Below are positions 2,580 to 38,031 of a stretch of DNA of 39,415 bases, one piece after another. Origin of the DNA: a virus. Numbering within the stretch: position 1 is the first letter of the stretch; every line of letters begins with the position of its first letter. The stretch is taken from UHGV virus genome UHGV-0176211. One strand, written 5' to 3'. The notes under the pieces were generated by a model, which saw nothing but the letters and a program-made list of their open reading frames with translations, ran no database searches and was not told where the DNA came from. The position numbers and the translations under genes were made by a program.

Positions 2580-3991
2580 CCACGATTAATCCTATCTTTG
2601 AACCGTTCATTGAGGCGCATCGCTACAAGGTCGCCAAAGGCGGTCGAGGTAGCGGTAAGTCATGGGCAATTGCGAGGCTGCTTGTTGAGGCGGCGCGTCG
2701 GCAGCCTGTGCGTATTCTCTGCGCTCGTGAACTGCAAAACAGTATCAGCGATTCGGTAATCCGGTTGCTTGAAGATACCATCGAGCGTGAAGGATATTCG
2801 GCTGAGTTTGAAATTCAGCGTTCCATGATTCGTCATCTCGGAACGAATGCTGAATTCATGTTCTACGGCATCAAAAACAACCCGACGAAGATTAAATCGC
2901 TCGAAGGTATTGATATCTGCTGGGTGGAAGAAGCGGAAGCGGTAACGAAGGAATCATGGGATATCCTGATACCAACCATCCGCAAGCCGTTTTCAGAAAT
3001 ATGGGTGAGCTTTAACCCGAAGAACATCCTCGACGATACCTATCAGCGATTCGTCGTAAATCCTCCTGATGATATTTGCCTGCTGACGGTGAACTACACC
3101 GACAACCCGCACTTTCCTGAAGTTCTCCGTCTGGAGATGGAAGAGTGCAAACGCAGAAATCCGACACTGTATCGTCACATCTGGCTTGGTGAGCCGGTAA
3201 GCGCAAGTGATATGGCAATCATCAAACGTGAATGGCTTGAAGCTGCAACCGATGCGCACAAGAAACTCGGATGGAAAGCGAAAGGCGCTGTTGTTTCTGC
3301 ACATGACCCGTCAGATACAGGGCCAGATGCTAAAGGTTACGCATCGCGCCACGGTTCGGTAGTTAAGCGCATTGCCGAAGGTCTGCTGATGGACATCAAC
3401 GATGGTGCTGACTGGGCTACTTCGCTGGCGATTGAAGACGGCGCTGACCACTACCTGTGGGATGGTGATGGTGTTGGTGCCGGGCTACGCAGACAGACAA
3501 CGGAAGCGTTCTCCGGCAAGAAAATCACCGCCACGATGTTCAAGGGAAGTGAATCGCCATTCGATGAAGATGCGCCGTATCAGGCCGGAGCATGGGCCGA
3601 TGAAGTCGTACAGGGCGACAACGTTCGCACTATTGGCGATGTGTTCCGCAATAAGCGAGCGCAATTCTATTACGCGCTGGCTGACAGGCTGTATCTGACA
3701 TATCGGGCGGTTGTTCATGGTGAGTATGCAGACCCCGACGACATGCTGAGTTTCGACAAAGAAGCGATAGGCGAGAAGATGCTGGAGAAGCTGTTTGCAG
3801 AACTGACGCAGATTCAGCGCAAATTCAATAATAACGGGAAGCTGGAGCTAATGACTAAGGTCGAAATGAAGCAGAAGCTCGGTATTCCATCTCCTAACCT
3901 GGCTGATGCGCTGATGATGTGTATGCATTGCCCGGAGTCGGCTGCGCAACCCGACTATTCCAGTTACTCAATTCCTTGTGGTGTAGGTTGA
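2576..3991 (+). CDS. Terminase large subunit
   Basis: 471 aa; Walker A GGRGSGKS near N-terminus, C-terminal nuclease-like region; ATGA overlap with small subunit. Confidence 0.9.
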   Translation: MTTINPIFEPFIEAHRYKVAKGGRGSGKSWAIARLLVEAARRQPVRILCARELQNSISDSVIRLLEDTIEREGYSAEFEIQRSMIRHLGTNAEFMFYGIKNNPTKIKSLEGIDICWVEEAEAVTKESWDILIPTIRKPFSEIWVSFNPKNILDDTYQRFVVNPPDDICLLTVNYTDNPHFPEVLRLEMEECKRRNPTLYRHIWLGEPVSASDMAIIKREWLEAATDAHKKLGWKAKGAVVSAHDPSDTGPDAKGYASRHGSVVKRIAEGLLMDINDGADWATSLAIEDGADHYLWDGDGVGAGLRRQTTEAFSGKKITATMFKGSESPFDEDAPYQAGAWADEVVQGDNVRTIGDVFRNKRAQFYYALADRLYLTYRAVVHGEYADPDDMLSFDKEAIGEKMLEKLFAELTQIQRKFNNNGKLELMTKVEMKQKLGIPSPNLADALMMCMHCPESAAQPDYSSYSIPCGVG

Positions 3992-12410: not shown

Positions 12411-13754
12411 GTGATCATGGCTACTTGGCAACAGGGTATTAATTCTGGTGGTTTTCTGGGTGGAATCGGTACGCAAAACGAGAATGCGCCAAAGGCAGGC
12501 GACATTAACGCAACGCTTGGTCTGATCCGCGAAAACAATGAACTGACTCGCTCAGGTGCAAATAACGTTGGGCTGACTGCTTTGCAAGGCCTTTCAGGTA
12601 TTGCGGGGGTGTTTCAGCAGGAAAAGCAGGCTCAGCGGCAGAAAGAATTTCAGCAGGCATACGCTAATGCTTATGCGTCTGGTGATCGCGGTGCTTTGCG
12701 TCAGTTGGCTGCTCAATATCCAGAACAGATTGAATCCGTTCGTAAAGGCATGGGATTCATTGATGAAGACCAGCGTAATTCTATCGGCACCTTAGCGGCT
12801 GGCGCACGTCTTGCGTCATCTTCTCCAGAAGCAATGCAATCATGGCTGCAAAACAACGCCGGTGAGTTAGCTCGTGTTGGCGTTAATCCTCAGGACGTCG
12901 CTCAGATGTACCAACAGAACCCGCAGCAGTTCGGCGAATTTGTCGATCACCTGGGGATTAACAGTCTCGGCCCCGAAAAATACTTTGACCTACAGGATAA
13001 AATGCAGGGTCGCCAGGTGACAATGCGCGGTCAGGATCTGAACTCGCAAACCGCCGCCCGGAATCAGGCAATCACAATGCGCGGGCAAGATATTCAGGCG
13101 AATTTAGGTCAGCAGCGCATTAATCTGGACGCAGAAACAAACCGCATTAACAACGAAAATAAGCGCCTTGACCGGATGCTATTATCAGAAAATAACGACA
13201 TAAAGCGACAGGAAATACAGAGCCGCATAGCAGCCAACAACCAGAAGTTGCAGCAGAAGCAGCAAGAGCTAAATGATGGCTACAAAGACGGCATAAACAC
13301 CATCACAACCAGCATGTCCACTCTGAACGATGTCGTTAATTCTCCTGCACTTAAGAGCATTACAGGCTTACGTGGAGCAATCCCCAACGTTCCAGGCTCA
13401 CAAGCTGCAGACACTCAGGCGCGACTTGATACCTTTAAATCCCAAGCATTCCTGACAGCGGTTCAGGCCATGCGAGGCATGGGCGCACTTTCTGATGCCG
13501 AGGGCAAAAAGCTCGACCAGGCTGTTGGTTCGCTGCAGAACTCGCAGAGCGAGGAGTCCTTTCGTCGCAACGCTGGCGTCATCCTGAACACGCTCAACCA
13601 GAAGCGTAATGAGGCGGTTGGTCAGTACGTTCAGCAAAACGGTATCAAGCGAGTGGAAGCGCCTCAGGCTTCTATAGATTACCTGAAGCAGCACCCCGAG
13701 CTGTCAATCGACTTCATTAATCGCTACGGATATCTTCCATCTTTGGGGCAGTAA
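12411..13754 (+). CDS. Ejection protein, gp20-like
   Basis: 447 aa, Gln/Asn-rich coiled-coil-like; position. Confidence 0.55.
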   Translation: MIMATWQQGINSGGFLGGIGTQNENAPKAGDINATLGLIRENNELTRSGANNVGLTALQGLSGIAGVFQQEKQAQRQKEFQQAYANAYASGDRGALRQLAAQYPEQIESVRKGMGFIDEDQRNSIGTLAAGARLASSSPEAMQSWLQNNAGELARVGVNPQDVAQMYQQNPQQFGEFVDHLGINSLGPEKYFDLQDKMQGRQVTMRGQDLNSQTAARNQAITMRGQDIQANLGQQRINLDAETNRINNENKRLDRMLLSENNDIKRQEIQSRIAANNQKLQQKQQELNDGYKDGINTITTSMSTLNDVVNSPALKSITGLRGAIPNVPGSQAADTQARLDTFKSQAFLTAVQAMRGMGALSDAEGKKLDQAVGSLQNSQSEESFRRNAGVILNTLNQKRNEAVGQYVQQNGIKRVEAPQASIDYLKQHPELSIDFINRYGYLPSLGQ

Positions 13755-16148
13755 ATGGCTAATTACCGTGATTTGTTAGAGCAGGCTGGCGCACGTTACG
13801 GTGTGCCAGAAGGGTTGATGACTGCACTGGGTGCCAAGGAGTCTTCTTACAACCCTGCCGCAGTAAGCTCCGCCGGGGCTGTAGGATTGACTCAGGTCAT
13901 GCCTGGGACATGGCGTGATATGGGTTATACCGATGAGCAAATGCAAAACCCCGAATATCAGGCTGACGCTGGCGCGCGCTATCTGGCAAAGATGTACCAG
14001 CAGTTTGGTAATTGGCGTGACGCTCTTCAGGCTTATCACGACGGTCCAGGCAACGTCATGAAGGCAAAGCGTGGTGAATATACTCCGGGGCCTGAGGGCC
14101 GCGGTTACGTTGATGATCGCTTTGCTCAATGGACGGGTGACCCGGTGACAGACTCAACAGTCGAACAGCGCGCCACCTCTGCAAAGGTGCATCCTCAGCA
14201 AGACCCTAACAACCCGTTTGCACAACTGGAAGTACAGTCATCCGAACAAGTATCTGCATCAGGTGTGCAGTCAGACCCAAACAATCCATTTGCTCAGATT
14301 GAGCAGCAGGCAGCCAGTCAGCAGCCACCTCAACCCGTAAGTTCTGTCGCGCCGAAACCTGTTCAGCAACAAGACGGAATAATGTCTGACCTTGGTAATG
14401 GATTTGCTGAAACAGGGCGCGGCTTACTACAGGCAGGAATCAACGTAGCGAACATACCTGCTGAACTCACTGATGCTGTAGCAAGCGCGGCGGCTTGGGC
14501 TGGCGGTAAACTCGGCATTGGAGATGGTACATATCAACCAGCGCCACGAGTAACAACGCAGGGATTAGAGCAGGACTTTGGCCTTCAGCAAGGCGCGCTG
14601 ACTCCACAAACAACAGAGGGAAGGGTATTTGCTGAAGCATTGCCTTACCTCACTCCTGCTGGCGTTGAGAGAGTGGCGGTACAGGCACCAACACTTGCTG
14701 GTCGAATTGCTCAGGGGGCAACTCGCCTTCTAGCAGAAAACGCAGTTGGATCACTTGCTGCAAATAGTGCGAAAGATGATGCGGAAGCACTCGCTACCGA
14801 TTTAGGCGTTGGCGTGCTGGCTGGCGGTGCTATTAACGCTGCCGGGCGTGGATTAGGCGCTGCTTATCGTGGCGTTCGTGGTGCTATTGCACCAGAAGCG
14901 CAGCAAGCTATCAGATTTGCAGAGCGTGAAGGGGTGCCCCTGCACACCACAGACCTGTTACAGCCTACTTCCCGCGTCGGAAAAATGGCGCAAACGACAG
15001 CAGAAAATATCCCTCTTGCTGGCACAAGCAGAATGAGAGCAACGCAACAGGAAGCGAGAAGCCAGTTGGTGCAGAGATTTGCTGATAAATTCGGTGAGTA
15101 TGATCCAGCGGTTGTTATTGACAGCCTTAAAGCGAAAACATCAGGAATTCGTCGTGCTGCCGGTAATAGACTGGAGCAGGTTCAGAATGCTATGGCTGGA
15201 GTAAACATTCAGCCTGTGCGAGCAATTCAGCAGATTGATACAGAAATATCTAATCTGCAGAAGCTTGGTAAGGTCGCTGATAACGAGACGATTTCAAAAC
15301 TTCAGTCATATCGTGATGAGCTTGTTCGCAATGCTGGTCCTGATGGTCCGGTCAATCTGGATTTGAAGCAATTAAGCGATCTGCGCAGCCAGTTCAGAAT
15401 GGACGTGAAGGGTGAGCGACCAGTGTTACCAAACCGTTCCGATGCCGCCATTCAGCGCGTTTACAAGGCAATGACTGGCGATATCAATGGTGCCATTGGT
15501 CAGAATCTTGGCAACGATACTCTCCGTAAATACCAGCAGGCCAATGCCGTCTACGCTGACGAAGCGGCGAAACTAAAGAACACCAGGCTGAAGAATGTTC
15601 TCATGAAAGGCGATCTGACGCCGGAAGTTGTCAATAACATGCTATTCAGCAAGAACAAATCTGAAATTAAGGCGCTGTATAACTCAGTTGGTCGTGTTGG
15701 CAGGGCGCAAATGCGCAATGGCATCATTGGGAAGGCGATGGAGAAATCTGGTGGATCTCCTGATCAGTTCCTTCGGCAGCTTAACATCCTGCAAAACCAG
15801 ACTGGCATCACATTTAAAGGGCAGGAAGCTGCTTATCTGAAAGGATTGAAAAACTACCTGCAATCCACGCAGCAGGCTGCAAAAGCGGCAGTAACAACAC
15901 CAACAGGACAACAAACCATCCCGTTCATTATTTGGTATGGTACGGCAATGAATCAGTTGACAACTGGCGCAACAGTAAGCTACGGACTTCTCGCTCGCGC
16001 CTATGAGAGCGAGCCATTCAGAAATGCAATGCTACGAATGGCAAACACCCCACGCGGCTCAACAGCGTTTGAGAAAGCCATACAGCAGGCGCAAAAGGCC
16101 ATTAACGCCCTTACTCAGGGCGCCAAGTCTGATGCGTTGTCAGAATAG
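13755..16148 (+). CDS. Ejection protein, gp16-like, with N-terminal lytic transglycosylase domain
   Basis: 797 aa; N-terminal ~110 aa has SLT-like motifs (AKESSYNP, GLTQVMPGTW, AYHDGPG). Confidence 0.65.
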   Translation: MANYRDLLEQAGARYGVPEGLMTALGAKESSYNPAAVSSAGAVGLTQVMPGTWRDMGYTDEQMQNPEYQADAGARYLAKMYQQFGNWRDALQAYHDGPGNVMKAKRGEYTPGPEGRGYVDDRFAQWTGDPVTDSTVEQRATSAKVHPQQDPNNPFAQLEVQSSEQVSASGVQSDPNNPFAQIEQQAASQQPPQPVSSVAPKPVQQQDGIMSDLGNGFAETGRGLLQAGINVANIPAELTDAVASAAAWAGGKLGIGDGTYQPAPRVTTQGLEQDFGLQQGALTPQTTEGRVFAEALPYLTPAGVERVAVQAPTLAGRIAQGATRLLAENAVGSLAANSAKDDAEALATDLGVGVLAGGAINAAGRGLGAAYRGVRGAIAPEAQQAIRFAEREGVPLHTTDLLQPTSRVGKMAQTTAENIPLAGTSRMRATQQEARSQLVQRFADKFGEYDPAVVIDSLKAKTSGIRRAAGNRLEQVQNAMAGVNIQPVRAIQQIDTEISNLQKLGKVADNETISKLQSYRDELVRNAGPDGPVNLDLKQLSDLRSQFRMDVKGERPVLPNRSDAAIQRVYKAMTGDINGAIGQNLGNDTLRKYQQANAVYADEAAKLKNTRLKNVLMKGDLTPEVVNNMLFSKNKSEIKALYNSVGRVGRAQMRNGIIGKAMEKSGGSPDQFLRQLNILQNQTGITFKGQEAAYLKGLKNYLQSTQQAAKAAVTTPTGQQTIPFIIWYGTAMNQLTTGATVSYGLLARAYESEPFRNAMLRMANTPRGSTAFEKAIQQAQKAINALTQGAKSDALSE

Positions 16149-16237
16149 TTTTTCAAGCACAAGGAACGTGCAAAAGCCAAATATGTAGAACGCAAGATTC
16201 AGCATGTCTCTGTTCATAAATCCTCCACAACGGATTG

Positions 16238-16723
16238 TTATCTGATGTTACTGCTACTGTTGCATGTGACTGTATTTCCAAACCCTGAATTGCAGTTTGT
16301 ATAGGTGTCAACACGCGTTGGGTAAGGTTGAGTTATAACAGGCTGTCTGGCTTTTTGCTCGATCGCTTGCATTGTGTTTAAAGCCTGATAATTCAATAAA
16401 GCCTGCTGAAATGCCTGGCTTTGCGCTATTTGCTGGGCTTGTTCTTGGGCTTGCAATTGAACATAAAGATTCTGAAGCTCAAGTCTTGCCTGCGCGTTAC
16501 TTATCTTGCCTTCATCGACACCTTGCCCGAGCATCTTCGCAGCAAGGACATACAGTTTAGGTGTTGGTGCTGACGCCATGCGTGAGTCGCTCTTCACGCT
16601 GGCATCAAGGCAAGTGGCCATATCGCTAAGCTTTTGATAGCGTTGTTCGCAATTTGCCTGATAGTCACTTACTTTTGCACATCCAACCAGCAGAAACGGG
16701 ATAATTAACAGTGCCTTTTTCAT
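16238..16723 (-). CDS. Lipoprotein (candidate superinfection-exclusion / moron)
   Basis: Signal peptide MKKALLIIPFLLVGC with lipobox LVGC, Gln-rich coiled-coil body; start taken at internal Met (track ORF 16238..16741). Confidence 0.6.
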   Translation of the reverse strand: MKKALLIIPFLLVGCAKVSDYQANCEQRYQKLSDMATCLDASVKSDSRMASAPTPKLYVLAAKMLGQGVDEGKISNAQARLELQNLYVQLQAQEQAQQIAQSQAFQQALLNYQALNTMQAIEQKARQPVITQPYPTRVDTYTNCNSGFGNTVTCNSSSNIR

Positions 16724-16744
16724 ATTGGTAACCCTCATCATTTT

Positions 16745-17401
16745 TTAAGCTCTTGCAATCTTCTCAGCGCATTTACGCACAACTCGCGGTATCGTCTCTT
16801 TCAGCTCATCCCACGAGTTGACAAACTCCATATCAAGAGCCTGAACAAGAGACTTCTGTATCTCGCTGCGCAACTGGTTGGTTTTTGCATCCTGAGAATC
16901 CCAGGTATCAAACCCGGTAACTTCACGGATATCTATCGATTCCTTAACCACCTTTGCAACCTGAATGAAATGACCACTATGACCAATCCTACCTTCTGTA
17001 CGCTCAAGCATCCGACTAACTGCTGCGTTAAGCTCCACAAAACTTGCCGCACCAATGTTTCGCAACTCGACCTGTCTCTGGGTGATAAAACGATCAATGA
17101 CGAGAAAGTGGAAATAAGTGCTGTACTGCTCGGCGACATACACCGCCAGATGGAGACTTAGCCACGTTTTCCCATTCCTTCCTCTCGTTGTTTTTAACGG
17201 AATAATACCAGTCTCCTCTTCACAAACACGCATGAAGTCTTTGCAGTCATCCGTTTTCAGTATCTGAGCAAGATTTCTTGGTTGAAGACCGTTATCAAAT
17301 CTCCATCGGTTCATTTGAACGGTTAGTGTTGACGCATCGATATACTCATCTCTGGTGAACTCGACTTCACCGTATGGGAACTCTAAAGTCTGCACTTTCA
17401 T
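16745..17401 (-). CDS. KilA-N / BRO-N-like DNA-binding domain protein
   Basis: 218 aa; GKTWLSLHLAVYVAEQYSTYFHFLV resembles the KilA-N core; GGAGAA RBS; family tentative. Confidence 0.4.
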   Translation of the reverse strand: MKVQTLEFPYGEVEFTRDEYIDASTLTVQMNRWRFDNGLQPRNLAQILKTDDCKDFMRVCEEETGIIPLKTTRGRNGKTWLSLHLAVYVAEQYSTYFHFLVIDRFITQRQVELRNIGAASFVELNAAVSRMLERTEGRIGHSGHFIQVAKVVKESIDIREVTGFDTWDSQDAKTNQLRSEIQKSLVQALDMEFVNSWDELKETIPRVVRKCAEKIARA

Positions 17402-17432
17402 ATCTTTTTCTCCAATTAATTACCTCACTTAA

Positions 17433-17462
17433 ATTATATTCCTAATTTATTTGTTTATGCAA
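17433..17462 (-). promoter_or_regulatory. Sigma70-like promoter for the leftward lipoprotein operon
   Basis: On minus strand: TTGCAT, 18-nt spacer, TATAAT, about 30 nt upstream of the 16745..17401 gene start. Confidence 0.5.
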
Positions 17463-17556
17463 CCATTAATACACAAAATTAGAGCAAATTAGACTTTTTA
17501 GGTGTTTGTGTGTGAACAATCTCTGCCATGCCATCACTCCAAGTTAGTGCGCTGGC

Positions 17557-17589
17557 ATGATAGAATCACTCTACTATATTCTCAATAGG
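17557..17589. promoter_or_regulatory. Arc operator / Pant-like region
   Basis: ATGATAGAATCACTCTACTATATTCTCAATAGG differs by about one base from the P22 Arc operator as I recall it; lies ~40 nt upstream of arc. Confidence 0.6.
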
Positions 17590-17618
17590 TCCACTGTGGG
17601 CCGTGCTGTGAGGTGAAT

Positions 17619-17777
17619 ATGAAAGGAATGAGCAAGATGCCGCAGTTCAATTTGCGGTGGCCTAAAGAAGTGTTGGATTTGGTACGCAAGGTGGCGGAAG
17701 AGAATGGTCGATCTGTTAACTCTGAGATTTATCAGAGAGTAATTGCCAGTCTTAAGAAGGAAGGGCGCATTAGCTAG
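17619..17777 (+). CDS. arc: Arc repressor (ribbon-helix-helix)
   Basis: 52-aa ORF read by eye, MKGMSKMPQFNLRWPKEVLDLVRKVAEENGRSVNSEIYQRV..., near-identical to P22 Arc as recalled; below ORF-track cutoff. Confidence 0.85.
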   Translation: MKGMSKMPQFNLRWPKEVLDLVRKVAEENGRSVNSEIYQRVIASLKKEGRIS

Positions 17778-18024
17778 AATACCTCTTCCGGCAATAGAAG
17801 AGCATTACTACTCAGCAAGGGAGGTTGCAGAGAATCTTGGAGTAACAGCCAACAAGATTGGTCGCATTGCTAACGCAAACAACCTCAAAACTGAGCGGTA
17901 CGGGAAGTTCTTTCTGGATAAATCGTCGCACTCCAGCAAACAGGTAGAGGCGTTCCGTTACAATTCTGAAGGCGTTAAGGCACTACAACACCTGCTAAAT
18001 TTCACGGCGTTTCCTGTCGATTGA
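17743..18024 (+). CDS. Hypothetical HTH-like protein at the ant position (possible remnant)
   Basis: 93-aa ORF whose only ATG lies inside arc in another frame; contains AREVAENLGVTANKIGRIA HTH-like segment; far shorter than P22 Ant (~300 aa). Confidence 0.3.
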   Translation: MPVLRRKGALARIPLPAIEEHYYSAREVAENLGVTANKIGRIANANNLKTERYGKFFLDKSSHSSKQVEAFRYNSEGVKALQHLLNFTAFPVD

Positions 18025-18061
18025 CAGCATGATTGAATTGGTATACATAACAAACGTAACG

Positions 18062-18084
18062 ACCCAGCTTCGGCTGGGTTTTTT
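18062..18084 (+). terminator. Rho-independent terminator
   Basis: ACCCAGC-TTCG-GCTGGGT hairpin followed by TTTTT. Confidence 0.7.
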
Positions 18085-18152
18085 ATGCCAAAAACTCACC
18101 GTAGCCACTCCGTGGCGGTTCCTTGTATATGGAGCAAATTAAATGACAAACA

Positions 18153-18656
18153 TTACAGCCCCAACAGATGGTCAGCAACCATGTTTGCTGCCTTATAAGC
18201 TATAGCTGCCTCATCAATGGTGTTGAATCTCCCAAGAGTTATGTTTTTACCTGAGAGATGTATCTGAGCTTGCCATTGATTTCTGGCTTGACAGAAAGTT
18301 ACCCCCTTGATTCCAGTATTGCTATTTCGAGGTCCGACATTTAACGCATTTACGACCCTGCTAACATCTCTAAGGTTTGAGATTGCGTTATTTCTTCTGT
18401 TTCTATCAATGTGGTCAATCTCTTGTTTTGGCCATTCGCCATATACATACAGCCAGGCAAGTCTATGTGCAAAATATCTTACGCCATCAATACTAATTGC
18501 GTTATACCCACAAGGAGTGATTGTGCCAGCAGCTTTACCAACAGCGCCTCTGGCGCTTAATTTCTTTTTCCAGGTGAAAATTCCTGTTTCTTTATTGTAA
18601 TCTAGAACCTCCATAAGGCGCTCCCGAGTTACTACCTCGTGACGTCTCTTACTCAT
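18153..18656 (-). CDS. HNH endonuclease with AP2-like DNA-binding domain (homing-endonuclease-like)
   Basis: 167 aa; HNH motif [18 protein letters not shown] and AP2-like segment [37 protein letters not shown]. Confidence 0.8.
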
Positions 18657-18669
18657 TATTTTCTCCGGA

Positions 18670-21366
18670 ATGTTTATTATGCCAAATCAATCATACAACG
18701 TTGTCGTTTCACAACCAAGTAACTTATTTACTTTAGCTCGCTCGTTTAAAGCAAATGCCAATGGCAGAATTTATATCGGTAAAATTGACACTGACCCGGT
18801 AAATCCTGAAAACCGGATTCAGGTTTATGTTGAGAATGAAGACGGTTCTCACGTTCCTGTTTCGCAACCAATCATCATTAACGCTGCTGGTTACCCGGTA
18901 TATAACGGGCAAATAGCCAAGTTCGTAACTGTGCAAGGCCATTCTATGGCTGTTTATGATGCATATGGTGCTAAGCAGTTCTATTTTCCTAATGTGCTGA
19001 AGTATGACCCTGATCAGTCATTGAAATATGTAGAAGGGGCATTGCTTGTTACTGACTTAGGTAATGGGACGTTTAAGAATAGTAGCAAAGACGTTGCCAT
19101 TGGGGATAATCTAACAGGAACCAATTTTATTAGAATAAACGGCGGCGTCTATAAATGCACTCCAGTTGCAACTGGAATTGTTACTGAGATCAAAGATAGA
19201 TACATTATCGCAGGCGGGGTTAAAAGCTACCTGTCTCATATTTCCAGACATGTCAGTGGTACGCGTAGGCCGCTGAACTGGAAATTAGAATTCAGCATCA
19301 TAGACAATGAGATTACCGCAGATCTTAAAGGTCAGTATGGTTATACGACCATGGGATTTCAGGGGATTTACATAGACAGCAATGATGGAATGGTATACAT
19401 CGGCTGGCAGACGCTAAACCCCGCATCGGTATGGGTTACGGTGCATGACTGGGCAACAGGAGCATTGGTAACACGTCTTCATTTTCCGAATAACGTTGGT
19501 GCACCAGAAGGCATCCACGTTTACAGAAAAGCAGGGCAGCGCTATATTCTACTGCCGTACAGCCCATCCCGCACTATCAGAATTTACCCTATCGGAGACC
19601 CGCGCACGCTAGCTGATAAAACGCAGATCACAAACTTCACGGAATCACCCAAACTTGGAGTGCGATATCAGTTCAGTGGTTTTGGTAATACCCTGCTATA
19701 CGAAAACGCGGACATGGGTTGGCCGAAAATTTTTGATGTTGAGACAGGTGTATCCAATATCTTTAACACACTGGATATTAACAGCCTTATAGAAGGATCT
19801 TATAGTCCAATGGGGACTATTACGGTTGATGCAAATGTTGGAGGTCGCGGAGCCGGTAAACCAAAACGGCAGGGTGTCGCTCTTGGTTCTCAACGGATAT
19901 TTGCTGGTATTGGTGCATCTACCACGGCGGGATCTGGAAATACTTTCGCAGGGTTGCAGGGTTATATTGAGTACAGCCATTCTGGTTCAGAATTAGGTCA
20001 GTACCTGCTGTCACCTGCAGATTTCAAAACATACTGGGATAGTTATTCAGGGAAGAGTGTTTACTCCACTGAAAATGAGGGGGTGCAGTCTTGTGATATT
20101 TCTGGCTCTGAGGAATTGTATCTTCTACAGTCTATTCGCTATGGCAATGGGGGCGGATCAAATTATAGGACTTTAAACATCATTCGCGCTAACTGTCCAT
20201 CTAATGAACCTGGAACAGTAGACATGAGTCCGCTATCCAATGCCGCATCACAGTTATTTAACCCTCGCGGAAGGGTGATTAACGCTGGCCGTCACCCTGT
20301 AAACCCGGCTGATGGTATTGCGCTATTTACATCGGCACAAGCTATTTGTGACTATTTGCGGAATACAGATGCAGGTAGATATGTGACATATCTTGAACAG
20401 GATATGCCACTGTTTGAAGGTGGGCCATCTGCGCCAGGACAGATGACACTGCCAGCATACTGCATATTGCAGATCGACTTCATCAACGGCGATACCTGGG
20501 AAATTACAGTTAATGGAACCAACAGGGCTAATAATTATACAGGAAGGATTTCCAAAAACGGCGGGTACAACTCTTTTACTAAGGTGTCCTCCCGCAGCAT
20601 GTCGATTCTCGGATCCCCTGGTCTGGTTGATGTATCAATTCGCTCACCTAACTCACCAAATCTTCCAGAATTTGCTGGAGACTGGTCTACTGGTGTAAGT
20701 ATAGGAGAAGCAGGTGGGAAGACAAACTGGCAGCCAGAAGGAACAGGTAACGGAGCATTATGGGAGTCAGGATATGCAAAAAACCGTGTGTTGCAGATAT
20801 TCATGTCCACAACATCAAAACTGTTCTTCCGCTACGCAGGCGATGCTATTCGCGCAGGTAACACAGGCTGGGCTGAGGCATGGTCGTCGCTGAACACGAC
20901 CGTCGATTCAAGTGGTTTCATCAAAAAAGCCTCTCCGGTTGTGAAGATTTTCTCAGACGGTAGTAGTGAAACAAATCGCGAATCAGATGGGGTAACCGTC
21001 ACACGGCTGGCATTGGGTGAATATCTGATTGAGGGTTGCGTAGGTCTGAATGCAGATGCTTCATGGGGTGGGATTGATGGTGGATTTGAAATACCGCAGG
21101 ACCGAAACAAGCAGCCGCTCATCTGGCTGGATTATGTTGTTAACCAAGATGGATCTGTGTTGGTGAAAACGTTTCACCGCACTCATGATAACTCGCCCGT
21201 TTTTGCACGTAACGACATACCTGGTGTTTCGAACGGTGACCCGATCGACATTCCTGCTAATCAATTCGTTTCTGTGCGAGTACAGATGCCTGAGGATTCT
21301 GCATGGAATAAGCTTAAGGAACAACTAAATAAGGCTGAATTGATAGAAGATGATGTTGTGGAATAG
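18670..21366 (+). CDS. Tailspike protein (P22-type head-binding domain plus distinct receptor-binding domain)
   Basis: 898 aa; first ~115 aa ([38 protein letters not shown]...[13 protein letters not shown]...NVLKYDPDQ) match the P22 gp9 N-terminal domain as recalled; remainder not P22-like. True start may be ATG 18679. Confidence 0.85.
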
Positions 21367-21405
21367 GTCTGTGATATTGGCATAGGTATAAGTGTCCGCT
21401 ATTTG

Positions 21406-21426
21406 GGTGGCATTACGCCACCTTTT
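21406..21426 (+). terminator. Rho-independent terminator after tailspike
   Basis: GGTGGC-ATTAC-GCCACC hairpin followed by TTTT. Confidence 0.55.
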
Positions 21427-21428
21427 CA

Positions 21429-21776
21429 TCAATCCAGTCCGTCCGGCACTGCCTGTACCATCTGCGCCCTGACCCACGCCACCCGCGACGGGTTCATATG
21501 GCACATGTTGTTCCTTTTTTCTTCATGGTAATGCCCATTACTCTCGTTAAATGGCAACACCTCATACAGCCCGGCACTTCTGAAATCAGCGTGTAATTGT
21601 TCCAGTGCCGCTTCGCTGGAGGTACCGATTGATGTGAGATAATCGAAAAGATTGGCGCATAAACCATAATTTCGAGAAAACACCCCACCTGGTTTCGCCC
21701 CATTACTCAACCACAAATCATAAGCAATATAAAACCCGTAAAGCTGTTTTCTGATATTTTCTTTGGTTTCTTGCAT
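21429..21776 (-). CDS. Hypothetical protein (early-left operon)
   Basis: 115-aa ORF, last gene of the leftward block. Confidence 0.4.
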   Translation of the reverse strand: MQETKENIRKQLYGFYIAYDLWLSNGAKPGGVFSRNYGLCANLFDYLTSIGTSSEAALEQLHADFRSAGLYEVLPFNESNGHYHEEKRNNMCHMNPSRVAWVRAQMVQAVPDGLD

Positions 21777-21811
21777 TATTTATTACCGCCCTTTCGGGCG
21801 GCCTCCTGACA

Positions 21812-22024
21812 TTAATCGTTGTGATAACTCATAGCTTCATTTGCAGCATCAACTGGATCAACATCCCACCAGCAATAATTTGGGTCGGCTCCTTCAGGTG
21901 TCCACGGCTCTAATTCATTTTTTGCCGCATTCTCGTCGCCAGTAATTTTAAAAATCTGCTCAGAAAATTTCCTCACCCACTCGTTATATTTTTCCGCATT
22001 AATGGTTTTCTGTGTATTTAACAT
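21812..22024 (-). CDS. Hypothetical small protein
   Basis: 70-aa ORF in the leftward block. Confidence 0.35.
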   Translation of the reverse strand: MLNTQKTINAEKYNEWVRKFSEQIFKITGDENAAKNELEPWTPEGADPNYCWWDVDPVDAANEAMSYHND

Positions 22025-22074
22025 AGATATACCTCCGGTTAAGGATTAGATTTTATTTACAACACTAAATTTAA

Positions 22075-22665
22075 TTATTCAGGCGCGCGAATCTGTTCCG
22101 CATAATGCAACAATGCTTCTGTCACTTCCTTAAGCGTTACGGTATAGCCATCGTCCAGCCCGGCAGCCGTCGCGCCCTTAACGAACGCCGAGCAAAGGTC
22201 ATTAAGCGCCTGCGCCCGTACTTCAGCCAGGAAAGCATCGGTGGCTGGGTGCTCTGTCTGGCTATGCATTGCCCATTCAGATAAGTACTCGAAGCAACGG
22301 CGAAACTCCTGCCAATCACTGCACATGTTTAGGTTTCCGCCTTCACACTCGAACTGGTAATTCTCTAAACGGTCTGCAAACGCTCTGCCATTCTCGATGG
22401 CACCAAGTGGAGTATCAGATTTCAGCCCAGCATTCTCCGCCGCCGGCGCCGAAAACTTCTCGTGTGCCAACTTAACAGCCGCATCAGCCTGCTTAATTGA
22501 CTCAATCGCTTTCTGGTGGTCTTCGGATAGAGCTGAAATCTTGGCCTCCGCTTCAGCAAATTTACGCACCAGATATTCAGCGTTTGTTTCGTTAACCTTT
22601 AAATCTCGTGGGATGCATTTACCTTTCAGAAAACCATCCATCTCAATTAGTGTCATTTGTTTCAT
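22075..22665 (-). CDS. Hypothetical protein, possibly Ead/Ea22-like
   Basis: 196 aa, coiled-coil-like N-half; ATGA coupling with upstream gene; family guess weak. Confidence 0.35.
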
Positions 22666-22844: not shown

Positions 22845-23112
22845 TACTGATAGCGCCATAGCGTGAGCGGTAATTACGCAGGCGCGGGTCGATATATTCA
22901 GGCCACTGCATATCCTGTTTTCTTTGCAGTGGGTAAAAACTTGCTTGCCAGTTGTCGAGCCATATTTGCTTTGCGTACAGATCACTAAATCTTTTCGTCA
23001 TCCGTTCATCAGAACTACCAGCAATAAAAAAACCGCGCTCGATTTGATCACGGGCTTCTTTTAGAACCTGCTCTTTTGTTCGCGGTGGCGACGGAGGTTT
23101 TAAATAATCATT
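22837..23112 (-). CDS. Hypothetical protein
   Basis: 91 aa from MNDYLKPP...; start overlaps the upstream stop (ATGA). Confidence 0.35.
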
Positions 23113-23773
23113 CATCCTTACGCTCCATATTCTCCAGCAGAGTAGCAGCCTCTCGAGGAAGCTCGAGTGCAGGGTAAACAGCGCGCCACGCTTCGTAAGG
23201 GTAAGCATTTACACTGCCGTAGCGAGGACAGAAGACTCTTTTAACCTCCACGTTAGCCTCAACACACCAGCTCTTGAGTGGTCGCCACAGATTCTTGGCA
23301 TCAAGCCCAAAGTCTGGATTAGCCTTAACCACGCGCAGAACATCGTAATATCTCACAGTCTGTTGAAGAATCAGTTTCAGTCTTTCTTTCTCTTCCCAGA
23401 GGTCGGCGGCCAGTCGCAACGCCTCACCCATTGTTTGCGGTACAGGAAATGTCGACTTAGCCGCGCTTTGCCGCATTGTCTCCAGCTGGTCAATCAGCGA
23501 ACGACGGACAGCTTTTGACTCGCGAGCCGCCACTCTCATGGCTTGTTTGTAGCTCATGACAATAGTCACCTGATCCGCGCCACCTTTTGTCTTATCCATG
23601 GGGGTTACGAAAATTTCGTAAGCCTCCCCATCCAGCTCATCCTTAACCTTGGCAATAAAATCATTGTTGCGGACCGGTTTTTCTCCGCACAATCTCCGCG
23701 CCTCATTAACCATCTTCAATAGTGTTTGGCTATTGATGGTTTCGTCGTGCTGCGTAGTAATTAACTCATTCAT
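23108..23773 (-). CDS. Antirepressor-like protein (partial KilAC-type segment)
   Basis: 221 aa; PVPQTMGEALRLAADLWEEKERL resembles the KilAC junction segment seen in the 244-aa paralog. Confidence 0.4.
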   Translation of the reverse strand: MNELITTQHDETINSQTLLKMVNEARRLCGEKPVRNNDFIAKVKDELDGEAYEIFVTPMDKTKGGADQVTIVMSYKQAMRVAARESKAVRRSLIDQLETMRQSAAKSTFPVPQTMGEALRLAADLWEEKERLKLILQQTVRYYDVLRVVKANPDFGLDAKNLWRPLKSWCVEANVEVKRVFCPRYGSVNAYPYEAWRAVYPALELPREAATLLENMERKDE

Positions 23774-25294: not shown

Positions 25295-25580
25295 TTAAAT
25301 CAAACCCTCATCAGTCAGCTTGCCGACAATCCACATCTCCCCTTCGGCGTAGAACATCGCCTGAGAGCGGCCATTTTCTGTCTCCCGCATGATTCCGTAG
25401 CCCTTGTCGATAAACCATTGCTGGAAGGCACGACCTCGCTTAACAGACCGGTTGTACACGCCAAACTGCTCGAGCTGCTTGTTCAGCCACACGGCGGATT
25501 GCCCGAACTTCTGCGCCACCTGCGACGCGTTATAAAGATTGTTGCGCTCAACGATGCGATCGTAAACCTCGGCTTTCGGC
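25295..25580. repeat. Inverted-repeat copy 1 (antirepressor C-terminal segment)
   Basis: Reverse complement aligns with 37745..38031 at ~90% identity by eye. Confidence 0.6.
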
Positions 25581-25966
25581 GCTGCGATTGATAGTTTCTC
25601 CTGTGCGATCAGCTTTTGTTCATACTCATTAGCCCATGCTCTGGCAGCTTCCGCTGGGTTGGCGAAGTCCGGTAGCGCTGCTTTGCGCACCTGCTCTTCC
25701 AGTTCCTGCCAGCGATCGATAATCCTTGCACGAAGTTCGACACTGTAACCAGAAACCACCAGCAATGTGTCACGCTTAGTTAAAAGCCATTCTCTTTGCG
25801 ATTGGTTGTTATATCCCTTGTAACTTACTGATTTACTTGATTCACTCAAATTTGAGTGAATGAAATCAATATCTCTTAATACATTGTCATGCCGTTTGCC
25901 TGTCAGTTCCGCAATCTCACGGCTAGACATTGTTTTTACTTCTGCGGTACTTATTAAACTGTTCAT
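25295..25966 (-). CDS. Antirepressor (Rha-type N-domain plus KilAC-type C-domain)
   Basis: 223 aa; N-terminal MSSREIAELTGKRHDNVLRDI, C-terminal ~95 aa nearly identical to the C-terminus of the 37297..38031 product. Confidence 0.65.
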   Translation of the reverse strand: MNSLISTAEVKTMSSREIAELTGKRHDNVLRDIDFIHSNLSESSKSVSYKGYNNQSQREWLLTKRDTLLVVSGYSVELRARIIDRWQELEEQVRKAALPDFANPAEAARAWANEYEQKLIAQEKLSIAAPKAEVYDRIVERNNLYNASQVAQKFGQSAVWLNKQLEQFGVYNRSVKRGRAFQQWFIDKGYGIMRETENGRSQAMFYAEGEMWIVGKLTDEGLI

Positions 25967-26388
25967 GATTTCATCTCCTCTCTCGCCGTCTCGTCGCGCA
26001 GGGGTTTAACCAGCATCAAATAGCCGGATTCAGTGAATACCCTCAACCCTCTAGTGGGGATGTCAAAAAACGGGAAGGCCGTTTTTTTATCAAAATCAAT
26101 AACATAAGTATCCTCGCCATCAATAAAATAGCTTGAGTTTCTTGTGTAGCTGTCACGAATTGTAGTTAACGGAACGCCATGCACAACAGCCACCTGCTGA
26201 AATGTAACCACACGCTCACCATTAAACTCGCAAGCTATTAGTGGGATATCATTAATCATCACGCTGTTCATGATTTTCCATCCTATCGTTGATATATTCA
26301 AATCAGGTTCTTTATCGCCGCGATAAAAACAATTTAAGACTCGCATCCTATCCCGAGCTTTATCATCATCAAAAAATGTAAAACTCAT
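25963..26388 (-). CDS. ORF6N-type domain protein
   Basis: NDIPLIACEFNGERVVTFQQVAVVHGVPLTTIRDSYTRNSSYFIDGEDTYVIDF parallels the N-terminus of the 256-aa product at 35577..36347; start uncertain (26388, 26271 or GTG 26403). Confidence 0.5.
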   Translation of the reverse strand: MSFTFFDDDKARDRMRVLNCFYRGDKEPDLNISTIGWKIMNSVMINDIPLIACEFNGERVVTFQQVAVVHGVPLTTIRDSYTRNSSYFIDGEDTYVIDFDKKTAFPFFDIPTRGLRVFTESGYLMLVKPLRDETAREEMKS

Positions 26389-26537
26389 TTCCTGCGATAC
26401 CACGGAAGGTTGACAGCTGATTTCATCGCTTTATTTGCTTCAAGCCACATTTTTGAGTCACCAATAAATCTGGCTATTACTGCTTTGTTCTGTGCAGCAC
26501 GAAGCATCTGGTGATTGATGGCTATTTCATTGCGCAT
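26385..26537 (-). CDS. Small ORF (50 aa)
   Basis: Found by eye; its stop overlaps the ATG of the downstream ORF6N gene (ATGA). Confidence 0.25.
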   Translation of the reverse strand: MRNEIAINHQMLRAAQNKAVIARFIGDSKMWLEANKAMKSAVNLPWYRRK

Positions 26538-27797: not shown

Positions 27798-28070
27798 TTA
27801 CCTCGCTGTCAGTTGTTTTGATTTCCGGTAGCCTGCCGCGTAAAGAGCTACGTTTGGAAGACAAGTTGAACCTTCATATTTTCTGGTCAACGTTGTCAGA
27901 GTTATCACTTCTGCTCTCATTGCTGGTTTGCGCTTGCATTGCAAGACCACTCGTGAAGGGGTTGGCCTGTGTAGCTTGTCGGAGCTGATCGCCTCCTGAC
28001 TTTGCAGATTTGCACGACGAGCTCTACGGCGAGAAGCTGCGGTTCCTTTAAATTCTGTTTTTCTGGACAT
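27798..28070 (-). CDS. N-like transcription antiterminator
   Basis: Start at internal Met with GGAGG RBS; Arg-rich motif TAASRRRARRANLQ; C-terminus LPNVALYAAGYRKSKQLTAR resembles P22 gp24 as recalled. Confidence 0.6.
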   Translation of the reverse strand: MSRKTEFKGTAASRRRARRANLQSQEAISSDKLHRPTPSRVVLQCKRKPAMRAEVITLTTLTRKYEGSTCLPNVALYAAGYRKSKQLTAR

Positions 28071-28179
28071 AGATTCCTCCCGAATAAACTTTGGCGATGC
28101 AATCTCGAAGCCCCTCCTGAGACGGTTGCTTCGGCATTGCATCCCACAGCTTATGTGGTTGGGTGATCTGGCTTTTCAG

Positions 28180-28215
28180 CCACGTAGTCGAGTGTTCGAC
28201 GTTGTTTAAAGAGCC
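28180..28215 (-). promoter_or_regulatory. nutL-like site (boxA plus boxB hairpin)
   Basis: Minus-strand GGCTCTTTAAACAAC, then hairpin GTCGA-ACAC-TCGAC, then TACGT; nearly the same architecture recurs at 29152..29183. Confidence 0.55.
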
Positions 28216-28260
28216 TGCCAGTCTGTTCCGTTTGGCTTCCAGCTTCCTGCTGATGACTAA

Positions 28261-28289
28261 ATAATACGGGACGTAGTTGATTAAGTCAA
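28261..28289 (-). promoter_or_regulatory. PL-like promoter
   Basis: Minus strand TTGACT, 17-nt spacer, TATTAT, upstream of nutL and the N-like gene. Confidence 0.55.
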
Positions 28290-28430
28290 CACAAACACTC
28301 TAAATGTGGTTAGTTTTTTTATAACTCTATGTATTTTATTGATTTATATTTTGGGAAAGAAAGTTGGCGCCAAGTTTTCACCAAAAGTGGTGAAATCCCT
28401 AAACCCTGTAGCCCGTCAAGAAGCTGGCCC

Positions 28431-28692
28431 GTGGTGCAGGAGATTCACCAGGGTGGTGCAGGAGATTCACCAGGGTGGTGCAGGAGATTCACTAGGGTGG
28501 TGCAGGAGATTCACTAGGGGGTGGTGCAGGAGCTGCACCCAGAACCAGTCACTCTTTTGAACCAGTCAATGAACCTAAAAACATTATGTTCGAACATGTC
28601 CGAACAGAGTGTGAAAAAACTCCTGACCGTCACGAAGAAACCGACAAGGCATTCGAGGAAATATTCTGGTGTGCAGGCATGCGGAAAGCCGG
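28431..28692. repeat. Direct-repeat copy A of an origin segment (iterons plus AT-rich flank)
   Basis: Near-identical by eye to 29986..30225 inside the O-like gene, with one extra 22-bp unit. Confidence 0.8.
28434..28538. repeat. Iteron array A (four 22-bp units plus a palindromic fifth)
   Basis: GTGCAGGAGATTCAC core at 28434, 28456, 28478, 28500; palindromic GTGCAGGAGCTGCAC at 28524. Confidence 0.8.
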
Positions 28693-28716
28693 TCTCGGCA
28701 ACCATTAGTTACGTCA

Positions 28717-37296: not shown

Positions 37297-38031
37297 ATGT
37301 TGGAAGTTAAATACAGTTACACCAACAAGAGAGAGGAATGTATGAGCAGTTTAATTAACGCTGCAGAAGTGCAAACCATGTCCAGCCGTGAGATTGCGGA
37401 ACTGACAGGTAAACAGCATGGGCATGTGTGCAGAGATATAAGAGTTATGTTGTCAGAGTTAGGAATCTCTGAGCAATCCAAAATTGGATTTGTCGAGAGA
37501 ATTAATAACTTAGGGCATGCCGTCAAAGATAAAGTCTACTTGTTGAACAAGGAAGAATCTCTCTGCCTTGTAGCTGGGTACAGCGCTGCTCTGCGTATGA
37601 AAATAATTAATCGCTGGCAAGAGCTGGAAGAACAAGAAAGTAAACCGGCATTTCCTGTCCCCCAAACTTATCTTGAGGCGCTCAAGGCGCTGGTGGTAGC
37701 AGAGGAAGAGAAAGAGCGCCTTGCACTGGAGAACAAGGAAATGAGTCCTAAAGCCGAGGTTTACGACCGCATCGTTGAGCGCAACAATCTTTATAACGCG
37801 TCGCAGGTGGCGCAGAAGTTCGGGCAATCCGCCGTGTGGCTGAATAAACAGCTTGAGCAATTAGGGGTATACAATCGTTCAGTTAAGCGTGGGCGCGTCT
37901 TCCAGCAATGGTTTATCGACAAAGGCTACGGCATCATGCGCGAGACTAATAATGGACACTCTCAGGCGATGTTCTACGCCGAAGGGGAGATGTGGATTGT
38001 CGGCAAACTGACTGATGAGGGGTTGATATGA
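37297..38031 (+). CDS. Antirepressor (Rha-type N-domain plus KilAC-type C-domain)
   Basis: 244 aa (possibly starting at Met16, 37342); MSSREIAELTGKQHGHVCRDI; C-terminus near-identical to the 223-aa paralog. Confidence 0.65.
   Translation: MLEVKYSYTNKREECMSSLINAAEVQTMSSREIAELTGKQHGHVCRDIRVMLSELGISEQSKIGFVERINNLGHAVKDKVYLLNKEESLCLVAGYSAALRMKIINRWQELEEQESKPAFPVPQTYLEALKALVVAEEEKERLALENKEMSPKAEVYDRIVERNNLYNASQVAQKFGQSAVWLNKQLEQLGVYNRSVKRGRVFQQWFIDKGYGIMRETNNGHSQAMFYAEGEMWIVGKLTDEGLI
37745..38031. repeat. Inverted-repeat copy 2 (antirepressor C-terminal segment)
   Basis: Aligns with the reverse complement of 25295..25580. Confidence 0.6.

Follow-up and report, generated by a model that had tools for sequence, protein, structure and literature searches.

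What occupies the interval between gene 16 and arc in the virus genome UHGV-0176211, where did the genes found there come from, and in which phase of infection would they act? The stretch of DNA analyzed here (the window; 39,415 nucleotides) is that of a P22-like (Lederbergvirus-type) phage, whose structural genes are ~94% identical to those of the Escherichia coli and Shigella phages Huey, Sf101 and CUS-3. P22 (NC_002371) has sieA, orf59a and mnt mapped to the same interval, in agreement with what a first-pass annotation of the window had assumed. In the window, this place is taken by two minus-strand open reading frames (ORFs), one for a 218-amino-acid (aa) protein of KilA-N type and the other for a 161-aa lipobox lipoprotein. 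The first-pass annotation had described them as a moron expressed in the lysogen from a strong promoter of its own, with the lipoprotein as a candidate superinfection-exclusion factor and the KilA-N-like protein as a candidate regulator or abortive-infection factor. Our comparisons lead to a different account. Nucleotide similarity identifies the interval as a recombinant joint of differently derived genes, and we assign a probability of about 0.6 to the reading that this joint forms a bicistron which acts in lytic infection and supplies a DNA-binding factor together with an envelope lipoprotein.

Two genes of different origin

The leftward two-gene arrangement itself was confirmed. Both ORFs are present in the ORF listing, lie on the minus strand and are preceded by plausible ribosome-binding sites, GGAG 8 nt ahead of the ATG of the 218-aa ORF and GAGGG 8 nt upstream of the lipoprotein start. 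The latter corresponds to the ATG at 16723, the MKK start with which all 88 homolog clusters begin. The gap from the 218-aa gene to the lipoprotein gene is 21 nt, and a scan of the window detected no terminator-like site between the two genes or after the lipoprotein gene.

The window up to 16745, and again from 17519 to 17774, is 91-92% identical to P22-like prophages of E. coli. Enclosed by these backbone segments is a cassette of ~765 bp (Table 1) that is ~87% identical overall to Jerseyvirus-type virulent siphophages of Salmonella such as phi135, and 92% identical in its upstream part. At the left junction, homology to P22-like prophages stops at 16745, which is 22 bp upstream of the lipoprotein ATG, and the final few codons of the 218-aa gene differ from the Jerseyvirus copies. 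At the right junction, the sequence ATCTCTGCCATGC occurs both in the intergenic region of Jerseyvirus and in the initial mnt codons; of mnt only ATGGCAGAGAT survives.

The usual surroundings of the two genes are distinct. The KilA-N gene of phi135 is flanked by the genes for portal and head morphogenesis, runs antisense to them and comes with an annotated promoter and bidirectional terminator; other siphophage lineages likewise carry it as a single antisense gene, in some cases at another site. In the P22-like relatives, 100-135 bp with promoter-like sites precede the lipoprotein gene (P22 sieA likewise has an annotated promoter of its own) and mnt is followed by a terminator. The space between the lipoprotein gene and arc contains mnt and further small ORFs both in E. 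coli prophages and in phage Gally. The window lacks both the promoter region native to the lipoprotein gene and the bidirectional terminator of Jerseyvirus. By sequence comparison, a Jerseyvirus-type cassette recombined at the 13-bp microhomology over the first mnt codons, an event that would have removed mnt, the adjoining small ORFs, the mnt terminator and the promoter region of the lipoprotein gene. Because these elements were lost and the Jerseyvirus terminator was apparently not imported, the two genes would have become fused into a single leftward, chimeric bicistron.

This history does not agree with a moron imported as one two-gene unit, given that the genes differ in origin and appear to have been joined by a recombination event that deleted mnt and the upstream region of the lipoprotein gene. 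Of the features by which morons are recognized, the flanking genes are adjacent in relatives (gene 16 and the tailspike gene are direct neighbors in Huey and BTP1), while a terminator belonging to the unit is lacking in the window and present with the Jerseyvirus copy.

Close homologs of the KilA-N-type protein (68-94% protein identity, e.g., phi135_56 and SEP1_gp04) were found solely on genomes or contigs of 40-50 kb, and all identified carriers are virulent Jerseyvirus-type phages. The gene occurs in at least 187 Guernseyvirinae-type records, nearly all of Jerseyvirus type, and in no P22-like record among GenBank phages and complete E. coli genomes. A scan of 185,579 species genomes produced one match, on a Jerseyvirus-like contig. 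This 19-kb contig is assigned to a Bacteroidota assembly (Taishania pollutisoli scaffold22, NZ_JACVEL010000022.1) and carries a KilA-N gene 87% identical to that of the window, together with a promoter region of the Salmonella-Jerseyvirus kind; probably the assembly was contaminated with phage DNA and the link to this host is not a real one.

The arrangement of the KilA-N gene with the lipoprotein gene is absent from GenBank phages, complete E. coli genomes, the 185,579 species genomes and IMG/VR. The junction sequence was detected in one metagenome contig alone (ERZ1034882 NODE-154; 40,813 bp, coverage ~296), which is 99.98% identical to positions 12665-22035 of the window (2 mismatches in 9371 nt) and represents the same phage. 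What is new here is the cargo and the cross-family recombinant, seen in this phage alone; both protein families were already in the databases as uncharacterized entries.

Loss of lysogeny genes

No integrase-sized ORF is present in the window, and tblastn with the integrases of BTP1, Huey and Sf101 found nothing there. An excisionase gene is likewise absent from the window, and the tailspike gene is directly followed by early-left (ea-type) genes (21366-22100). Between the N-like gene (27798-28142) and the cro-like gene (28925-29140) there is no cI/c2 repressor gene. Its place holds a second copy of the ori iterons (GGTGCAGGAGATTCAC repeated at a 22-nt spacing); the segment 28473-28692 is 98% identical over 220 nt to 30006-30225, which is the ori within the O-like gene. 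Only 41 codons are left of the cII-like ORF. Finally, ant is represented by a 93-codon ORF that lacks an ATG and overlaps the last part of arc. This remnant matches the final ~72 codons of an Ant-type protein (241 aa) from phage JEP4, and its nucleotide sequence is 92-95% identical to the end of the 'KilA protein' gene of JEP4 and to the phiKp_30 homolog.

The phage would appear to derive from a temperate one and to have become obligately lytic, with two origins. Given that integrase and cI/c2 are missing and that the cII-like gene and ant are truncated, the two-gene unit must act in lytic infection, the phase in which the KilA-N gene also acts in the virulent donors, and the proposal that it is expressed in a lysogen does not hold for this genome.

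The KilA-N-type protein

The KilA-N-like core proposed in the first-pass annotation was borne out, mainly through relatives of the protein. The Pfam model KilA-N (PF04383) matched residues 16-104 at 16.8 bits (E=0.006), below its cut-off of 23.8; among 50 family members recovered with the family profile, however, 32 matched this model, the best with E=7e-18, and the N-terminal domain (residues 1 to ~105) has the three-dimensional fold of APSES/KilA-N domains. A profile of the close family retrieved ~140 cluster representatives at E<=1e-3, mostly proteins of 200-230 aa with full-length matches, and profile searches of PDB with the family gave just weak matches to Mbp1 that were confined to the N-terminal part. 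Residues ~110-218 form a helical, very conserved C-terminal domain for which Pfam has no family and which none of the library searches describes. Its conserved positions include R114, N125, W167 and R178 and do not suggest a catalytic site. A few distant family members bear N-terminal GIY-YIG, T5orf172 or MUG113 domains; the 218-aa protein contains no nuclease domain.

Distant homologs are solo genes in varied contexts, some of them beside HNH or transposase genes, mostly on short contigs. On one 7.1-kb contig (JGI 3300039261), a distant homolog of the KilA-N/C-domain family adjoins an HNH gene, and a second KilA-N paralog lies 1 kb downstream. The pair hints that this family multiplies within genomes.

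PHROG 6095 matches the 218-aa protein over its full length (E=1e-122) and, like GenBank entries, carries the label 'amidase'. Neither Pfam nor NCBIfam revealed an amidase or peptidoglycan-hydrolase domain. The sole trace of one was a non-significant match to autolysin E over 58 residues (E=0.74), and the fold is that of KilA-N plus helices. By these domain and fold comparisons the 'amidase' annotation is a mislabel that has been propagated wrongly. Identity with BstA was also considered and rejected: the PADLOC BstA model (PDLC02356) was silent on the 218-aa protein at E<=1, yet matched BstA of BTP1 with 1.9e-124, hhalign of the family profile against BstA gave a probability of 0.06%, and BLASTP found nothing. 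With the PADLOC model silent and this hhalign probability, homology gives no support to the earlier suggestion of an abortive-infection factor. PADLOC defense models matched neither this protein nor the lipoprotein, literature searches on the two families returned nothing, and profile and fold searches placed neither protein in a well-characterized structural family or beside a characterized homolog.

Among the Jerseyvirus groups compared, the N-terminal half of the protein is 57-60% identical and the C-terminal half 85-95% identical. Both genes are intact, and their ratios of nonsynonymous to synonymous differences (pN/pS), 0.03-0.12 for KilA-N and 0.10-0.13 for the lipoprotein, show purifying selection on each. 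In the comparison with phi135 (window positions 16745-17401 against L003 positions 3326-3976), the protein is ~90-97% identical throughout, and pS is 0.79 (near saturation) in codons 101-210 and 0.29 in the first 100 codons. The halves differ in synonymous divergence, so that relative to phi135 the KilA-N gene has a mosaic make-up of its own. The low difference from phi135 also spans the promoter region.

The lipoprotein

The lipobox lipoprotein was correctly recognized in the first-pass annotation. The N-terminus of the 161-aa protein (MKK-ALLIIPFLLV-G-C) has a basic n-region, a hydrophobic core and LVG directly before the cysteine, in keeping with the lipobox pattern [LVI][ASTVI][GAS]C; cleavage after MKKALLIIPFLLVG would leave C-AK at the mature N-terminus, as in a signal peptidase II substrate judged by sequence. 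Cys15, Ala16 and Lys17, together with four further Cys residues, are invariant in 29 homologs, and no hydrophobic helix is present beyond the single N-terminal signal peptide. Under the +2 rule of E. coli, Ala at +2, as opposed to Asp, implies sorting to the outer membrane. Because Ala16 occupies this position, the lipoprotein is probably sorted to the outer membrane, where it would face the periplasm. A low-confidence AlphaFold2 (AF2) model of the mature protein (pLDDT 60.5) shows a helical bundle, a Gln-rich helix and a Cys-bridged C-terminal hairpin. PHROG 6067 (function unknown) matches the protein with E=7e-106. Pfam and NCBIfam contain no credible family for it, sequence searches of PDB gave non-significant matches alone, and Foldseek of the model against PDB returned nothing with E<0.89.

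Homologs form 88 clusters in Enterobacterales, with hosts that include E. coli, Citrobacter, Serratia, Klebsiella aerogenes, Yersinia, Pectobacterium, Morganella and Providencia; phages Gally, 720R6, VSe13 and Brookers carry the gene as well. At every locus inspected, it is antisense, directly after the P22_gp16 homolog and before the tailspike gene. Prophages with the gene between the gene 16 homolog and the tailspike were seen in E. coli, Salmonella, Serratia, Yersinia, Morganella and Proteus, and in the prophages of Yersinia ruckeri and Morganella it is the sole gene there. The gene is self-contained in temperate relatives, where it lies antisense and has candidate promoters of its own. The examined loci encode SieA or the lipoprotein, never both. 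By this distribution the lipoprotein gene is cargo of the P22-like backbone in the position of sieA. Because it occupies this position, and because it is self-contained with its own promoters in temperate relatives, it may serve in exclusion; by analogy with sieA this is a fair guess.

Promoters and operators

The candidate promoter of the cassette, on the minus strand, consists of a -35 element TTGCAT (17462-17457), an 18-nt spacer and a -10 element TATAAT (17438-17433) that matches the consensus perfectly. A -35/-10-like pair lies at a constant distance from the ATG in all three sequence-divergent Jerseyvirus groups compared, and a promoter is annotated at the corresponding site in phi135. 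The strong, near-consensus promoter claimed in the first-pass annotation is only partly borne out: the -10 agrees with the claim, and the -35 and the spacer, which are taken up below, fall short of it.

The palindrome TAAATTAGGAATATAATTTA (17430-17449) overlaps this -10 and occurs once in the window genome. Jerseyvirus-type genomes (L011-L015 and L018-L021) have three versions of the promoter, 30-60 nt upstream of the KilA-N gene, and each version has a near-perfect palindrome over the -10 (ATTCTACAT..ATGTAGAAT or ATGGTATAT..ATATACCAT). These palindromes put -10-like hexamers on both strands and may represent back-to-back divergent promoters or an operator. We considered whether the KilA-N protein regulates its own gene and set this aside because palindrome type does not follow N-terminal type: L014 and L018, for example, have identical N-terminal halves and different palindromes.

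We identified a second leftward candidate promoter that the first-pass annotation had missed. This homolog of Pmnt (17585-17557) has its -10 inside the Arc operator, which differs from P22 Oarc by one mismatch. In the Mnt operator (GGTCCACTGTGGGCC vs GGTCCACGGTGGACC) two changes, located in the half-sites, break the symmetry, and the overlapping Pant has CTGGCA as its -35 in place of TTGACA. Differences from P22 and E. coli prophages in this stretch (17552-17603) cluster in the Pant -35, the Mnt operator and the Arc operator, which fits relaxed selection on these control elements after the loss of mnt and ant. In P22, a weaker Pant raises Pmnt activity, and Arc shuts off Pmnt. By analogy, the bicistron would be read from both the cassette promoter and the Pmnt remnant, the latter being repressed by Arc. 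The layout of the region lets us infer co-transcription of the two leftward genes from these tandem candidate promoters.

Proposed function and alternative explanations

In the reading that we favor, the KilA-N protein would bind DNA through its variable N-terminal domain, while the invariant C-terminal domain would engage a conserved partner or oligomerize. The protein would act as an early regulator or as a factor in inter-phage competition. The lipoprotein, placed in the outer membrane, would alter the envelope against later-arriving phages. Its most plausible target would be DNA delivery mediated by ejection proteins or an outer-membrane receptor; of the two, the ejection-protein channel is the more attractive because the gene is constantly linked to ejection-protein genes.

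Several points weigh against this reading. Neither protein matches a defense model, and the lipoprotein has a low-confidence model without a fold match. The -35 of the cassette promoter is weak (3/6 matches), its spacer is long, and a consensus scan passed the promoter over. Palindromes over the -10 do not track the type of the N-terminal domain, which leaves autoregulation by the KilA-N protein unsupported. The argument for co-transcription consists solely of the 21-nt gap and the lack of a terminator-like site, and a promoter inside the 218-aa gene could possibly drive the lipoprotein gene. In addition, ~1.4 kb of the 40.8-kb metagenome contig falls outside the window, so that an integrase there is formally possible; by gene order, this segment should be the lysis cassette.

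Other explanations attribute different roles to the same genes. The lipoprotein and the KilA-N protein could constitute a single two-gene prophage moron, in which the former excludes superinfecting phages and the latter is a regulator or abortive-infection factor of the lysogen. The position is that of P22 sieA and mnt, many integrated P22-like prophages carry the lipoprotein gene with promoter-like sites, and BstA is a precedent for a KilA-N-containing defense protein in a P22-like prophage (PMC8585504). However, the separate origins of the two genes, the loss of integrase and cI/c2 with truncation of the cII-like gene and ant, the uniformly virulent nature of the identified close KilA-N carriers, and the absence of a match to BstA or any other PADLOC model make this explanation unlikely. 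A portable competition module comparable to BstA, whose protein blocks replicating foreign phage DNA while an upstream cis element confers self-immunity, was given the same low weight. It would account for the joint transfer of the gene with its upstream region, 92% identical to phi135, and it accords with the two-domain plan shared with BstA (KilA-N plus a C-terminal effector domain), with the palindrome over the -10 in every Jerseyvirus group compared, with a variable DNA-binding half next to an invariant effector half, and with the constant occurrence of the gene as a lone antisense insert. Yet homology to BstA is not detectable, palindrome type does not follow N-terminal type, and co-transfer of the upstream region needs no special cause since a promoter is needed anyway.

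The KilA-N gene might also be a selfish mobile element, a homing-endonuclease relative without its nuclease, that spreads by recombination during co-infection with little benefit to the phage. Nuclease domains (GIY-YIG, T5orf172 or MUG113) at the N-terminus of distant relatives, solo homologs in varied contexts with HNH or transposase genes near some of them, the differing location among siphophage lineages and a free-standing HNH gene inserted nearby in the same region all agree with this view. We consider it rather improbable, given a protein with no nuclease domain and conserved residues that suggest no catalytic site, its presence in at least 187 Guernseyvirinae-type records, and a pN/pS of ~0.03-0.1 with synonymous sites near saturation, which argues for a function useful to the phage. 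It is very improbable that the interval is decaying immI debris in which neither gene is functional in this phage: both ORFs are full length with good ribosome-binding sites, differences from relatives are mostly synonymous, and arc is intact, even though mnt is lost, ant is truncated, the Mnt operator and Pant -35 are mutated and lysogeny genes have been lost elsewhere in the genome. Finally, a bolder and quite doubtful extension holds that the KilA-N gene and its palindrome are a transferable module of inter-phage warfare among virulent phages, analogous to BstA and its aba element and independently evolved, whose capture ahead of an exclusion-type lipoprotein gene, by an ex-temperate P22-like phage, would have created a combined anti-competitor operon. 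If so, the module would disable the DNA of co-infecting competitors, the cis element would shield the carrier, and the operon would be under control timed by Arc. The chimeric bicistron acting in lytic infection remains our preferred reading.

Gene order in the window

Positions of the genes, junctions and control elements are listed in Table 1.

Table 1. Features of the gene 16-arc interval and its flanks (positions in the window)
Feature	Position	Strand	Remarks
Gene 16 homolog (ejection protein)	13755-16148	+	797 aa; N-terminal SLT domain
Lipoprotein gene	16238-16723	-	161 aa; mechanical ORF reaches 16741; PHROG 6067
218-aa KilA-N-type gene	16745-17401	-	PHROG 6095
Left junction	16746-16766		Last codons of 218-aa gene
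Jerseyvirus-type cassette	16767-17531		218-aa gene and 130 bp upstream
Candidate cassette promoter, sigma-70-like	17433-17462	-	Conserved position; phi135 annotation
Residual ORF of 16 codons, from mnt start	17479-17529	-	Remnant at right junction
Right junction, 13-bp microhomology ATCTCTGCCATGC	17519-17531		Jerseyvirus intergenic region/first codons of mnt
Pmnt homolog TTGAGA-17-TATCAT	17557-17585	-	10/12 matches; points into cassette
Arc operator (17557-17577) and decayed Mnt operator (17581-17603)	17557-17603	+	Comparison with P22
arc, intact	17613-17777	+	54 aa; Pfam Arc E=3e-28
ant 3' remnant	17743-18024	+	PHROG 1726, profile positions 181-259 of 264

A lytic-transglycosylase domain of SLT type (E=2.8e-25) forms the N-terminal domain of the gene 16 homolog; by annotated coordinates, P22 gp16 comprises 609 codons. 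On the other side of the interval, a free-standing endonuclease gene with HNH_3 and AP2 domains (18153-18656, minus strand) is inserted downstream of the ant terminator (18061-18080) and ahead of the tailspike start (18670). This site measures just ~30 bp in relatives, and the E. coli phage Kapi1 has the insertion, 93% identical.

Further afield, four additional anti-repressor paralogs of Ant/Bro-N type (PHROG 63 and 1726; 23108-23773, 25295-25966, 35577-36347 and 37297-38031) and an ORF6N gene (25963-26403) were found; the anti-repressor paralogs are dispersed over the early-left and nin regions of this repressorless phage. The repeats at and near 28142-29723 are 28409-28692 with 29963-30225, and 29408-29607 with 29697-29896, and the N-terminal part of the O-like gene is duplicated (83%). 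A 968-aa replication protein of primase/helicase type (30601-33507, plus strand) replaces the P22-type helicase, and the nin region contains a PAPS-reductase-like gene (34116-34988, plus strand; PHROG 33262/424).

Significance

The interval documents, cleanly and at base resolution, an exchange between virulent Jerseyvirus-type siphophages and P22-like podophages, which are unrelated to each other and have enterobacterial hosts in common. A microhomology of 13 bp sufficed to swap a repressor gene for a foreign promoter-gene cassette and to rewire the neighboring gene. Two uncharacterized families are brought to attention, a lipoprotein in the sieA position that is spread over at least six genera and a KilA-N protein misnamed 'amidase', and both are candidates for exclusion or competition factors. 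Because the carrier phage has lost its lysogeny genes, accessory genes at this locus cannot safely be assumed to be prophage-expressed, which calls for caution in annotation.

Comparison with known systems

The interval retains much of the plan of P22 immI (sieA-orf59a-mnt/Pmnt-Pant/arc-ant). Its site between gene 16 and the tailspike, the divergent Pmnt and Pant, the leftward accessory gene directly after gene 16, an intact arc and an Arc operator one base away from that of P22 are all alike. The window differs in having an unrelated lipoprotein gene for sieA, the KilA-N cassette for mnt and orf59a, only a 3' remnant of ant, mutations in the Mnt operator and Pant -35, and an HNH gene before the tailspike. 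Compared with the KilA-N proteins of Jerseyvirus and other Guernseyvirinae, the copy in the window shares the promoter region but is located in the immI of a P22-like podophage and is followed by the lipoprotein gene.

Outer-membrane lipoproteins serve other phages as exclusion factors, namely Llp of T5 and Cor of phi80 and N15. The resemblance is one of kind alone, small lipobox proteins expressed independently of the late operon; no relation in sequence or fold to these proteins was detected. With P22 SieA, the lipoprotein gene shares its position, its orientation against the late operon and its linkage to ejection-protein genes across genera. The proteins themselves are not similar in sequence, as tblastn with SieA found nothing in the window or at the lipoprotein loci. 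SieA is a polytopic inner-membrane protein with an FxRYPxEAxxFNK motif that targets ejection proteins (Leavitt et al. 2024, PMC10883804), whereas the lipoprotein is predicted to be secreted, has a lipobox and is probably located in the outer membrane.

BstA of BTP1 (Owen et al. 2021, PMC8585504) and the 218-aa protein are both carried by P22-like phages. BstA has 307 aa, is encoded downstream of cI in a prophage and has a cognate DNA element (anti-BstA, aba) over the start of its gene; the 218-aa gene lies in the immI of a phage without cI. Variable cargo between gene 16 and the tailspike is already well known in P22-like phages. sieA is found in just one third of them (PMC10883804), and in MG40, 156 bp replace immI (PMC7484078). 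To this variation the window adds a recombinant in which the cargo of one phage group is joined to that of another.

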